From assembly GCA_964596735.1 (NCBI GenBank), contig CAZQVF010000005.1, positions 13,328-77,327 on the forward strand: a stretch of DNA of 64,000 nucleotides. The letters are read 5' to 3'. The first letter of the stretch is position 1. Each line of letters starts with the position of its first letter. Source of the DNA: an uncultured Gammaproteobacteria bacterium (GTDB lineage Bacteria > Patescibacteriota > Patescibacteriia > UBA2591 > UBA6264). The position numbers were made by a program, and so were the translations under genes. The notes below the pieces were generated by a model. It saw only the letters and a list, made by a program, of their open reading frames with translations, made no database searches and was not told the DNA's origin. Shown piece after piece: positions 17,232 to 20,981 of this stretch.

Positions 17232-17265
17232 ATATTCTTAGTTAATTGGTTATTTACTGTTAGTA

Positions 17266-17420
17266 TAAGAACCTGCTTCGCAGAACCTTGAAATTAAATT
17301 CTATTATATATAAATTAAGGTAATTTAATTATAAGAACCTGCTTCGCAGAACCTACCTGCCGGCAGGCAGGCCTTGAAATTAAATTCTATTGTATAAATA
17401 ATAATGTATTTTAATTATAA
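17266..17420 (+). promoter_or_regulatory. Tandem pair of the dispersed promoter-like repeat (copies 4a at 17266-17332 and 4b at 17333-17420)
   Basis: Two head-to-tail copies with TTGAAA at 17288-17293 and 17374-17379. Copy 4b carries a 20-nt insertion containing the perfect palindrome cctgccggcagg (17356-17367). Both point toward the 3' end of the minus-strand RT gene. Confidence 0.6.
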
Positions 17421-17464: not shown

Positions 17465-18442
17465 TTATTCTACTAAACCTACTTTCTTTCTAAATTTATA
17501 CGTATTTCCGTGAATCAATAGTCCTTGATAAGAAATAACTGTCTGTCGTTTTGGATAATTCTTTAATCTTCTAATTATCTTTCGCTTTGTGGTTGTTCGA
17601 ATCTGTCGATAGCATGGAAAATGTATCCAGCCCAAAAAATCTAAACCCGAAGCATAAGTTCTAATACAAACCTTGTGTTGATGAAGTGTCAATTTAAGTT
17701 CTTTTTGTAAAAATTCAGTGATTCTTAACAATAAACCATTGAGATACTCTTTATTGTCCGATAAAATAACGAAATCGTCGCCATATCTAATATAATATTT
17801 CACTCGCAATTCCTGTTTTATATACATATCAAATTCGTGCATATAAACATTAACGAAAAGTTGGGAAGTGAGGTTGCCAAGGGGCAGACCTATCCCCAAA
17901 CGGCTGGAATAAAAACTAAAAACTACCCTTTCAATCAACCGAATAATTTGAGAATCGTTAATGTGTCTCTTTAATATTTTAATAAGGATTTGCTGATCAA
18001 TGTTAGCAAAAAATTTCTGAATATCGCATTTTAGAATATAACAAGTTTGAGAATTATTTTTTGATACCTTCTGGGCAAAATATCTGAATCTGTTCAAAGC
18101 GCGATGCACTCCCTTGTTTTCTCTACACGAATATACATCATAAATAAACTTTCTATCAAAATAAGGACACAGCTCCTTATAAATGAGATGATGTAATAAC
18201 CGATCACGCACCGTAGCTTTGTGAATATTTCTCGGCTTGGGGTCAGAAATATTAAAAGCCGAATATGGTCCGTGAATATAAGTAAAATTAACCAGAGACT
18301 TATAAAGATCTATTAAATTATCGGCCAGCTTTATTTGAAAAATCATCACATCTTTTTTATGTCTTTTACCACACAAAAAACGCTCCCAAGTCGCTAAGAG
18401 ATTTTCTATCTTAATAATATCAATATATTTAACTTTAAACAT
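17465..18442 (-). CDS. DGR-type reverse transcriptase
   Basis: RT motifs: PRNIHKATVRDRLLHH, ILKCDIQKFFANID, IGLPLGNLTSQLFVNVYM (DGR-typical LGxxxSQ), IRYGDDFVIL (YxDD) and LDFLGW. Start taken at MFKVKYIDI (18442). The ORF could extend to 18511. Confidence 0.9.
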   Translation of the reverse strand: MFKVKYIDIIKIENLLATWERFLCGKRHKKDVMIFQIKLADNLIDLYKSLVNFTYIHGPYSAFNISDPKPRNIHKATVRDRLLHHLIYKELCPYFDRKFIYDVYSCRENKGVHRALNRFRYFAQKVSKNNSQTCYILKCDIQKFFANIDQQILIKILKRHINDSQIIRLIERVVFSFYSSRLGIGLPLGNLTSQLFVNVYMHEFDMYIKQELRVKYYIRYGDDFVILSDNKEYLNGLLLRITEFLQKELKLTLHQHKVCIRTYASGLDFLGWIHFPCYRQIRTTTKRKIIRRLKNYPKRQTVISYQGLLIHGNTYKFRKKVGLVE

Positions 18443-18820
18443 ATGACTACAATATCTGCGCGAGTACCATTGGTGCTTGTTAGAACAAAAAGGGCTTATC
18501 AAATTTGGCACAAAAATTTAGTCAATCTTAATCGACTTGATCGCTATACTATTGGTGCTAAAATCGATGAATATTTTCTATCTTTATTGGAATTAATTTT
18601 TAAGGCCTGTTTTGCTTACGATAAATTTGAAAAACTCTCAATGGTATCACAAGCGATTGGTAAAAACGATTTATTAAAATTCTTTTTACAGATTGGTTGG
18701 GAACAAAAAACCATTAACCATAAAAATTATGGTCTTCTAATACTTTTACTTGATGAAGTTGGTCGAATGCTGGGTGGCTGGAAAAAAAATATACAAGAAA
18801 AAACTCCCGCTAGTAAGTAG
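18443..18820 (+). CDS. avd: Avd-like four-helix-bundle accessory protein, on the strand opposite to RT/TR/VR
   Basis: 125-aa helical protein: RAYQIWHKNLVNLNRLDRYTIGAKIDEYFLSLLELIF...LLKFFLQIGWEQK...LLDEVGRMLGGWKK. It resembles the four-helix-bundle family that includes DGR Avd. Its ATG abuts the RT start (cat|atg at 18440-18445). Confidence 0.75.
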   Translation: MTTISARVPLVLVRTKRAYQIWHKNLVNLNRLDRYTIGAKIDEYFLSLLELIFKACFAYDKFEKLSMVSQAIGKNDLLKFFLQIGWEQKTINHKNYGLLILLLDEVGRMLGGWKKNIQEKTPASK

Positions 18821-18840
18821 CAGGAGAAAAAATTAAATAA

Positions 18841-18960
18841 GTCACAGAAGCAGAGCAGGCAGTCGTTATCATCCCAAGCGTTCTCAAAGTTGCCGAGGTT
18901 GAAATTAAAGTCATCATCCGAGTTGCGGTTGACATTCGGCACGCGGTAGTTGCCGTCAGA
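18841..18960 (-). repeat. DGR template repeat (TR)
   Basis: 120 bp homologous to 19299-19418. Minus-sense reading is rich in AAY codons: SDGNYRVPNVNRNSDDDFNFNLGNFENAWDDNDCLLCFCD. Contains 28 adenines in the minus sense. Confidence 0.9.
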
Positions 18961-19200
18961 CAATGTACAGCCCGCCACCTTTTTCACTAAGGGTAACGCC
19001 AGTCGCCCTCTGTATTTTATTCTGAGCCAAAATGCTCAATAGCACGCTGCACCGACTGATTTAATTTTTTCATAAAAGGTTGCACTCATTTACTAAGCAT
19101 GCCCAGTAAATTCCTGGCAAACTCCCTTTACGAGAATTCGATGATATAAAGCCATGGCCACATATCCAATCTATTATCCAAAAATATTATACAGAAAAAA

Positions 19201-19238
19201 TACATAAAAGAAAAGGGTCCTTACATTGGTAAGAACCC
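19201..19238 (-). terminator. Rho-independent terminator of the DGR target gene
   Basis: Minus-strand reading: gggttcttac-caat-gtaaggaccc followed by ttttctttt. It lies between VR and TR. Confidence 0.6.
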
Positions 19239-19289
19239 AAAGGGTCAAAAAATCCAAAGAACAGGACTAAGAAACCAAGTGCCTAAGCA

Positions 19290-19949
19290 CTAATCGCAGT
19301 CGCAGAAGCAGAGCAGGCAGTCGCTATCATCCCAAGCGTCCTCAAAGGGGCCGAGGAAGAAAATAAAGTCACCAACCGAGTAGCGGTCGACAGACGGCAC
19401 GCGGTAGCTGCCGTCAGAATCGATCCAGAGAGCCTCTTTCTCATCAAACGAGACAGACCAACGGCTCTTTGGCAACTTGTTTTTGGCAAGTTCATAGACC
19501 AGTGAAGCGCCTTGAGCGCCGGCTAAAACAGCTTTCTGAGAATACAGGAAATTTAAACAGTCTTCCGAAGTCACAGTTTCTGTGATATTAAAAACCTTTA
19601 CCTTGAACTTTCTGCCAGGCACGAGCTTTGTTGTCGCTTTGTTAAAGTGCTTATCAGTGATGTCGGAATTGTAGTAATTAAATTCCGAGCCATGCGCTGC
19701 TGCAAAGTCAGTCAAGCGCGTAGCATGGTCGTAACCCTTAGGCACAACAATGTTAAACGCATTGGCCAATTTGAAGCGCGGGTCAGGCATAAACGGTGAA
19801 AGAGCTTGCTGACGTTGTTTCTGTGTCAGATTTAAAAAACATTCATATTCTGGCAAACTCATTTGCCCTTTCTTGATCTTCTGATTGCAATCCATATGCA
19901 GACCAGCCAATTTGGCCGCTTCTGCGCCGATAGATGTCTTATCCATCAT
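19290..19949 (-). CDS. DGR variable (target) protein, unknown family, C-terminal VR
   Basis: ORF ends ...WIDSDGSYRVPSVDRYSVGDFIFFLGPFEDAWDDSDCLLCFCDCD*, with the VR covering the last 40 full codons before CD*. Start at ATG 19949 is preceded by AAGGAG; the ORF track start at 19997 is the alternative. No N-terminal hydrophobic signal is seen. Confidence 0.85.
   Translation of the reverse strand: MMDKTSIGAEAAKLAGLHMDCNQKIKKGQMSLPEYECFLNLTQKQRQQALSPFMPDPRFKLANAFNIVVPKGYDHATRLTDFAAAHGSEFNYYNSDITDKHFNKATTKLVPGRKFKVKVFNITETVTSEDCLNFLYSQKAVLAGAQGASLVYELAKNKLPKSRWSVSFDEKEALWIDSDGSYRVPSVDRYSVGDFIFFLGPFEDAWDDSDCLLCFCDCD
19299..19418 (-). repeat. DGR variable repeat (VR)
   Basis: Base-by-base alignment to the TR gives 15 mismatches. 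14 fall at TR adenines (minus sense) and 1 is a T>C in the invariant GC-rich 3' end. Confidence 0.9.
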
Positions 19950-20015
19950 TTTCTCCTTTGATACCAAGAGTTTAATAATTGACCCCATGCCAATCATTTT
20001 CTCAGTATTGATAAT

Positions 20016-20044
20016 ATTATGTCATATTTTAGCCTTTTTGTCAA
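20016..20044 (-). promoter_or_regulatory. Candidate sigma70-type promoter of the DGR target gene
   Basis: Minus-strand reading: TTGACA (20044-20039), 17 nt, CATAAT (20021-20016). It sits about 65 nt upstream of the ATG. Confidence 0.5.
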
Positions 20045-20092: not shown

Positions 20093-20160
20093 CACCGCCG
20101 AGGAGAATCGAACTCCTGAGACGGATTTGCCTTTAGCGGAAAACCTGGCGTCCTACAATG
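20093..20160 (-). pseudogene. Decayed tRNA-Glu-like pseudogene (3' two-thirds)
   Basis: Minus-strand reading: aggac-g-ccagg-ttttc... (D-stem 3' half, anticodon-stem 5' half, and the start of a UUC-type loop, as in the intact tRNA-Glu). Disrupted sequence follows. An intact T-arm aggag-ttcgatt-ctcct and acceptor 3' strand cggcggt-g complete it. No matching 5' acceptor strand was found. Confidence 0.6.
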
Positions 20161-20201: not shown

Positions 20202-20891
20202 TTATTTTAATCCACTTTGTAATTTTAACGCGTCAATCCATCCTTTAATTCGAAAAGCTATCTTACGACCATGTACACGTAAATCAAGTGTGCCATATGG
20301 CAAAGAATTGATTGGACGTTTTCTGTTGCTCGCTTTGCTTATTTGTTTAAAAATGCGAAAACGACTTTTAGGAATATTAGTTACTCTAGCCCAAAAATTA
20401 ATGGCAGATTGCTCGCTAATATTAGCATGTATTCTAACACATACTTTTAATTTCTCTTCAGGGACTTTAATAATTTCTCGTAAAAAGCGAAGAAACAACG
20501 CAATCATATAAGGATCAGCATTAACAAAATCAACTACATACCCTTTGTTTTTTTGAGCCTCAATTTTATATCCCTCTGCCCAATAAAGAGCATTTGCAAC
20601 TAATAATAACTCATATTTTGACAACGAATGAATTTCATTAAAAGTCTCCTTCTTTATTCTCTGATTTTCAATCCAAATAGCACGTGTCCGTTGCCGATTG
20701 TTTTCAAATAACCCATGTTCTCGAGCAATTCTCGTTTTTTTTTCTAAAAGCTTTTTTGCTGACTTTGTTAGTTTTAAGTCTCTAAACCAAACGCTAAGCG
20801 AGCCCTTGGAAACACTTAAAGTACGAGCTATTTCATTGTAACTTTTACCCTTTAACCGCAACCTGAGCGCTTTTTGATATTGTGGATGCAT
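20202..20891 (-). CDS. LAGLIDADG-like homing endonuclease with N-terminal HTH
   Basis: HTH GKSYNEIARTLSVSKGSLSVWFRDL, then LLLVANALYWAEGYK ... VDFVNADPYMIALFLRFLRE ... YGTLDLRV. Start moved to ATG 20891 because the longer ORF overlaps tRNA-Glu. Confidence 0.65.
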   Translation of the reverse strand: MHPQYQKALRLRLKGKSYNEIARTLSVSKGSLSVWFRDLKLTKSAKKLLEKKTRIAREHGLFENNRQRTRAIWIENQRIKKETFNEIHSLSKYELLLVANALYWAEGYKIEAQKNKGYVVDFVNADPYMIALFLRFLREIIKVPEEKLKVCVRIHANISEQSAINFWARVTNIPKSRFRIFKQISKASNRKRPINSLPYGTLDLRVHGRKIAFRIKGWIDALKLQSGLK

Positions 20892-20909
20892 AATAATTAA
20901 ATATATAAG

Positions 20910-20981
20910 TAGCGCCAAGGGGAATCGAACCCCTGTTACATGGTTGAAAACCATGTGTCCTGACCACTAGACGATGGCGCC
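20910..20981 (-). tRNA. tRNA-Glu (UUC)
   Basis: Manual cloverleaf: acceptor ggcgcca/tggcgct, D stem gtct/ggac, anticodon stem catgg/ccatg with loop ttTTCaa, T arm agggg-ttcgatt-cccct. Confidence 0.88.

Follow-up and report, generated by a model that had tools for sequence, protein, structure and literature searches.

What role does a small, hypervariable binder without an export signal play in a host-dependent bacterium with a reduced genome? The question has been raised in the literature, and it returns with a diversity-generating retroelement (DGR) in a 64,000-nt stretch of contig CAZQVF010000005.1 (assembly GCA_964596735.1; the window hereafter), whose target gene encodes a protein that an initial annotation, made by eye from the sequence alone, could not match to the classical lectin-type DGR targets. 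We conclude, with a probability of roughly 0.8, that this gene codes for the protein diversified by a DGR that is active, chromosomal and of a type known from bacteria of the candidate phyla radiation (CPR), that the protein joins a helical module to a divergent lectin-fold domain, and that it is probably unexported.

The first part of this answer comes from the pairing of a template repeat (TR) with a variable region (VR) at the 3′ end of the gene (Table 1). A pattern of the template in which adenines are masked matches the VR and the TR and nothing else in the window (0 matches expected by chance); a second VR or paralog within the window, considered as a candidate, was rejected on the same grounds. 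The TR lies downstream of the VR at an offset of 458 nt, and all 14 mismatches between the two fall on TR adenines, at the first or second position of 11 codons (P = 5e-11 for 14 random mismatch sites all landing on the 27 adenines among 116 positions). The recoded residues are N181S, N186S, N188D, N190Y, D192V, D193G, N196I, N198F, N201P, N204D and N209S. The VR, whose last stretch is adenine-free and GC-rich, terminates 8 nt short of the stop codon, and the first mismatch away from an adenine, T to C at 19302, marks the boundary of the putative initiation of mutagenic homing (IMH) site. Beyond it stands a short hairpin that, by analogy with known DGR layouts, would be the DGR hairpin/cruciform element, so that a VR at the 3′ end of the target is followed by a putative IMH and a hairpin. 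From the TR, adenine mutagenesis cannot reach a stop codon, and about 1e16 protein variants are possible; AAY codons (AAC or AAT), which cannot yield a stop, make up 9 of the up to 18 recodable codons. In 8 homologous loci, too, the mismatches within the TR-VR homology region fall on template adenines. All of this bears out the initial annotation, which had called the protein a DGR target, had listed the same 11 diversified residues, and had read a product of about 219 aa ending in ...CLLCFCDCD. The length follows from the ATG at 19949, the favored start: it is preceded by AAGGAG, and homologs begin there at MDK. The open reading frame (ORF) runs on to an in-frame upstream ATG at 19997 (ORF 19290..19997, minus strand), which would give 235 aa.

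The second part is the machinery beside the target. The reverse transcriptase (RT) is 31% identical to Brt of Bordetella phage BPP-1 (E 1e-46) and has the motifs LGNLTSQ, which fits [ILV]GxxxSQ, and YGDD; the gene is called in the same way in L001, a near-identical contig from another metagenome. The accessory gene avd lies on the strand opposite to target, TR and RT, and its ATG and the likely start codon of the RT lie back to back (18442-18443), which leaves no intergenic room for promoters; transcription of an RT mRNA would have to run through antisense avd. The complete order target, TR, reversed avd, RT is present in 9 homologous loci, and 2 more show it with a TR copy or an RT that is partial or lies beyond the contig; the arrangement agrees with the “B3” architecture described for DGRs of CPR bacteria. 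TR RNA serves as the template for an adenine-mutagenized cDNA made by the adjacent RT together with Avd, and this cDNA overwrites the last 116 nt of the target gene, where up to 18 codons can be recoded. In the predicted protein, the VR would build the last 3 strands of the lectin-fold domain, with CLLCFCD as a fixed final strand, and the swappable N-terminal module may couple the binder to a partner.

The element is active, with ongoing diversification. Over 8,708 nt, the window and L001 differ at 2 bases alone, 19330 and 19325, both of them TR-adenine sites inside the VR, and the confinement of differences to such sites indicates recent retrohoming. The alternative VR allele of L001 is also present on 3 further contigs, making 4 metagenomes with an identical allele; that one allele is common to 4 samples argues against very fast turnover. 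The sole other difference was seen against 2 of these 4 near-identical contigs (L002 and L003), an A/T substitution at 20851 inside an ORF with a helix-turn-helix (HTH) domain.

On what scaffold, then, does this variation sit? An AlphaFold2 model built on a 98-sequence alignment (predicted local distance difference test score, pLDDT, 91.6; predicted template modeling score 0.78) has 3 N-terminal helices (residues 9-26, 32-39 and 43-53; pLDDT 51-88) followed by an alpha/beta domain at 59-217. Residues 56-219 are predicted to form a compact, highly divergent C-type-lectin-fold domain that carries the VR, with a likeness to C-type lectin domains that is structural only (4-13% identity). In the predicted VR strands 182-189 and 195-201, variable positions alternate with conserved hydrophobic ones (V187, F195, F197, L199, F202), so that the variable residues would be expected to lie together on one exposed side of a hairpin, as a ligand-binding site. 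In the family alignment (265 members), AAY codons have a column entropy of 3.34 bits and other adenine codons one of 2.52, compared with 1.30 for VR codons free of adenine and 1.76 for the remaining domain, and a scaffold reading SFDEK.ALW.D..G..RVP.V.R.S...F.F.LG.F...W....CLLCFCD is conserved.

Several results weigh against this fold assignment, which rests on a predicted structure. A Foldseek search with the model returned no significant match (best E 0.33 in PDB and 0.05 in BFVD), the family profile had 0 matches among PDB sequences at E up to 10, and hhalign gave 0.1% probability for the family against Mtd. The target has no match in Pfam, NCBIfam, PHROGs or PADLOC; an NCBIfam match to LIC_12337 (0.011) was dismissed as far below cutoff. 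No Pfam family matched the target at E up to 1, FGE-sulfatase (formylglycine-generating enzyme, FGE), DUF1566 and Lectin_C included, and none recurs among the 98 members; the protein has no profile match to canonical Lectin_C, with its conserved disulfide and Ca-site motifs. The initial annotation is thus upheld in finding no sequence likeness to Mtd/TvpA-type targets. The Foldseek comparison that it had proposed gave no significant match, although the few structured ones among the weak matches are again C-type lectins; a non-significant result fits a divergent subtype. Mtd, TvpA, AvpA and TaqVP are absent from the 60 structure matches listed, their presence in the library being unconfirmed. 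Because FGE-type structures score below compact lectin domains, we do not place the target in the FGE subclass. A further claim, that the N-terminal 170 aa match nothing recognizable, gives way to a predicted lectin-fold domain that begins near residue 56. As modeled, the target does not have a new scaffold: it is a variable protein of the kind typical of CPR DGRs, with a C-type-lectin fold that is compact and divergent.

The domain belongs to a large family. A word-index search gave 248 homologs. In an hmmsearch run with its profile, the family comes to at least 1,314 clusters at 50% identity (E up to 1e-3; 1,006 with E up to 1e-10), nearly all of whose members have 165-260 aa. Genome loci were available for 24 homologs, all in metagenome-assembled genomes; several are labeled “bacterium” only, and the informatively labeled ones are Patescibacteria (Paceibacterota, Zambryskibacteria, Nomurabacteria and others), save one labeled Bdellovibrionales. 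Two loci with an apparent DGR and a remote second target (L020 and L027) are identical sequences from one metagenome-assembled genome and were uninformative. In other subfamilies the N-terminal module is swapped for unrelated N-termini, of which the alignment has several alternative types; searched for on its own, the 56-residue module yielded no candidates. In two larger proteins, P0157 and P0165 (792 and 649 aa), the lectin-fold domain of the family is internal, and behind it come repeats of a domain of about 150 aa that has no Pfam match. Both are encoded on one 72-kb contig (L034 5001-7379 and L036 5001-6950; JGI 3300009373), next to an AAA ATPase and among a series of large genes without annotation; no DGR is close by, and the two are non-DGR multidomain uses of the family. 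The family as a whole is a large set of unannotated CPR proteins without a Pfam model.

Where the binder works is the harder question. For both start forms of the target, hydropathy and motif heuristics found no hydrophobic segment, lipobox or signal (maximal 19-residue Kyte-Doolittle mean 0.73), in agreement with the earlier description of a small protein without an N-terminal hydrophobic segment or lipobox. The upstream ATG at 19997 was considered as the source of a signal peptide and rejected, because the added stretch, MIGMGSIIKLLVSKEK, is too short, has charged residues and is missing from homologs. Given that there is no Sec, lipoprotein or membrane signal, the protein is most likely a soluble binder in the cytoplasm, or else leaves the cell by non-classical export; host attachment, defense and regulation are candidate roles. 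The same heuristics found no export signal in more than 95% (about 97%) of 266 family representatives, the target included. Some observations tell against a cytoplasmic location. Signals were predicted by heuristics only, and about 5-7 of the 266 representatives do have an N-terminal signal peptide (P0188), a lipobox-like motif (P0212, P0229) or a hydrophobic anchor (P0182, P0214, P0243), in each case where the helical module would otherwise stand; around the P0212 gene, no DGR lies within 4 kb. These few members suggest that the lectin-fold domain can work outside the cell. In addition, C131 and C211 tend to be kept or lost together (odds ratio about 5, not corrected for phylogeny), as expected of a disulfide pair, which would fit an extracellular role.

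These observations bear on the strongest alternative, in which the protein would be a surface or extracellular adhesin for attachment to a host or particle, exported by a non-classical route and docked by its helical module on a pilus, S-layer or other surface. The variable proteins with an assigned function, Mtd, TvpA and LdtA, bind extracellular ligands, and CPR bacteria are thought to be host-dependent episymbionts. Such a role would also suit the signal, lipobox-like motif or anchor that replaces the helical module in P0188, P0212, P0229 and P0182, the likeness of the co-retained C131 and C211 to a lectin-domain disulfide, and the signal or membrane domain that most cellular DGR targets carry (PMC8144416). 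What keeps it a possibility of the second rank is the lack of an export signal in nearly the whole family, together with a neighborhood in which, across the 24 loci, RT and avd alone are conserved and no secretion, pilus or surface genes recur; limited to these 2 genes, the genomic context holds no functional clue. In 2 of the anchored members, moreover, positive charges follow the hydrophobic segment, which in our reading would leave the domain inside the cell. Nor is the missing signal a new anomaly: it is a known trait of CPR DGR targets, since those of CPR clade 2 typically lack transmembrane or other domains, although whether they are genuinely non-membrane was left undecided (Roux et al. 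2021, PMC8144416). The puzzle of an unexplained intracellular binder, as first noted, is therefore real, and it had already been described as general for such targets (Roux et al. 2021; Wu et al. 2018, PMC5758913).

If the protein stays inside, it might be a sensor or neutralizer of invaders that binds phage or host-derived molecules, a pared-down equivalent of the DGR-diversified “antigen sensors” with lectin domains known from multicellular bacteria. The family-wide lack of export signals would agree with this, PMC10907252 offers a precedent in cytoplasmic DGR targets fused to NTPase conflict systems, and the non-DGR multidomain relatives stand beside an AAA ATPase on their one contig. Still, we consider this reading unlikely, as the protein itself has neither an effector nor an NTPase domain and none is conserved in its neighborhood, PADLOC gives no match, and the identical VR allele in 4 metagenomes implies that turnover is not rapid. 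A similarly doubtful proposal is that the family forms a cytoplasmic, antibody-like repertoire within an episymbiont of reduced genome, in which interchangeable N-terminal helical modules would plug free-standing, hypervariable lectin-fold binders into different cellular partners. If true, this would be a use of DGRs distinct from both surface adhesion and NTPase-coupled sensors, for example in sensing or sequestering phage or host-derived molecules.

The cysteine-rich tail fits the predicted lectin fold as well. Its codons, TGC CTG CTC TGC TTC TGC for CLLCFC, have zero adenines and for this reason cannot be mutagenized, and the motif, which is conserved across the family, falls in a modeled strand at 210-217 (pLDDT about 95). 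CLLCFCD is predicted to occupy the place of the invariant, IMH-encoded strand beta5 of Mtd, TvpA and AvpA. Adenine-free codons limit the residues to F, L, S, C, W, P, R, V, A and G, and the near-invariant VR residues (G180, V184, P185, F197, L199, G200, F202, W206, C211, L212, L213, C214 and F215) are all encodable without adenine. The confinement of non-varying positions to adenine-free codons would thus make the tail rich in Cys, Leu and Phe, a simple explanation for its odd composition, with Cys presumably serving as a small hydrophobic core residue. That the tail is invariant and encoded by an IMH-like region had been recognized at the outset, and it is indeed the IMH-proximal, adenine-free part of the VR; a free, Cys-rich and possibly metal-binding tail, as also suggested then, is replaced by a predicted core beta strand. 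Homologs, to which the annotation had looked for conservation of the tail, retain the motif as such but not every cysteine in or beside it: conservation is weak at C216 and C218, and V, Y or A often takes the place of C211. A disulfide or a metal site is conceivable. A new, non-lectin VR fold with a metal-binding CxxCxC tail, as that annotation implied, is very improbable: it could draw on the 3-4 Cys within 8 residues, the conserved H75 and C131, and the lack of sequence, profile or Foldseek similarity to known lectin-type DGR targets, but the tail is modeled with high confidence as a beta strand and not a loop, C216 and C218 are poorly kept and C211 is often replaced, and the codon constraint already accounts for the Cys/Leu/Phe content.

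Table 1. Positions in the window of the target gene, its parts and the other elements of the DGR cassette.
Feature	Position	Strand	Basis or remark
Target (variable protein) gene	19290..19949	−	219 aa + stop; ORF list, homologs
N-terminal module, residues 1-55, 3 predicted helices	19785..19949	−	AlphaFold2 secondary structure
Predicted compact C-type-lectin-fold domain, residues 56-219	19293..19784	−	
VR, residues 178-216, 116 nt	19303..19418	−	covers last 3 predicted strands, 182-189, 195-201 and 210-217
CLLCFCD codons, C211-D217, predicted invariant last beta strand	19299..19319	−	adenine-free IMH-proximal stretch
Short hairpin AGTGC-TTAG-GCACT (5-bp stem, 4-nt loop)	19278..19291	−	overlaps stop codon; position of DGR hairpin/cruciform element
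TR, 116 nt	18845..18960	−	27 adenines in 18 codons, 9 AAY
avd accessory gene, 125 aa	18443..18820	+	Pfam bAvd 2.7e-12; NCBIfam DivGenRetAVD 4.5e-14; PHROG Avd 1.3e-15
DGR RT, 325 aa from M24 of ORF beginning 18511	17465..18442	−	RVT_1 2.3e-21; phrog_1423 1e-91
Strong promoter-like site TTGACA-17-CATAAT with TG extension	20016..20044	−	5′ of target gene; 11/12 consensus positions
Intrinsic-terminator-like hairpin, 10-bp stem then T-run	19215..19238	−	ending target transcript

The base composition of the cassette is uneven. Target and TR (18750-19950) have a G+C content of 0.47 against 0.32-0.33 for the RT and flanking DNA, and a sliding profile suggests that avd is low as well. An excess of 10-20 points is found in most homologous loci (L005-L027), for example 0.60 against 0.36-0.37 in L015; since it spans the entire gene, avoidance of adenine in the VR alone is no sufficient explanation. 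A second terminator-like hairpin (9-bp stem and T-run, 18804-18826, minus strand) directly follows the TR, overlapping the stop codon of avd; it could terminate the TR RNA, act as a terminator in both directions or belong to the structure of the template RNA. Next to the RT gene, on its downstream side, the intergenic stretch 17255-17420 has 2 families of direct repeats of 34-49 nt, with copies 88% identical and 66 and 86 nt apart. On the other side of the cassette, a fragment resembling a tRNA T-arm and acceptor lies near 20098-20125 (region 20095-20160), without an ARAGORN or Rfam call, and the HTH-domain ORF (20202..20954, minus strand) lies between it and a tRNA-Glu (20909-20981, minus strand), which its annotated N-terminus overlaps; a small element may have integrated here, or the region may be the remnant of a tRNA. 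An Rfam scan of the cassette gave nothing but the tRNA-Glu.

Among known systems, the target most invites comparison with AvpA, the variable protein of a DGR of Nanoarchaeota (Handa et al. 2016, PMC5006420). Both are small and, as far as the model goes, consist essentially of one lectin-fold domain, in a reduced-genome and probably symbiotic organism; both are unassignable by sequence, have an invariant last strand (a predicted one here) encoded by the IMH and about 12 variable residues, mostly from AAY codons, and lack an assigned function. There is no sequence relationship between the two, as judged from the search of the family profile against PDB. The VR here has about 39 residues at the extreme C-terminus and spans 3 predicted strands, whereas that of AvpA has 27 residues, is internal and is followed by a 46-residue extension, and the target has an additional predicted module of 3 N-terminal helices. 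With Mtd of phage BPP-1 and TvpA of Treponema, both of the FGE subclass, the element shares the retrohoming mechanism, as its Brt-like RT indicates, and the target shares a C-terminal VR of about 40 residues over the last strands, AAY codons, and an invariant final strand, predicted in the target, that is encoded by the IMH; it differs from them in the nil profile similarity, in being neither a phage tail protein nor a lipoprotein and having no export signal, and in its reversed avd. Closest in host and in the character of the target are the UVR1-6 and ungrouped classes of Wu et al. (2018, PMC5758913) and the clade-2 CPR clusters of Roux et al. (2021, PMC8144416), which come from Patescibacteria and have targets without membrane or known domains. 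Wu et al. left the CPR classes UVR1-6 without a fold, and between them the 2 studies left the fold of CPR targets undecided or predicted a new variant of the lectin fold. If the model is right, an apparent exception is removed: the scaffold conforms to the general pattern of DGRs acting on C-type-lectin folds, and this pattern is extended to a large unannotated family of CPR proteins. Since this family is abundant, compact (a domain of about 160 residues) and confidently modeled, it offers a practical entry point for work on the binding and localization of CPR variable proteins.
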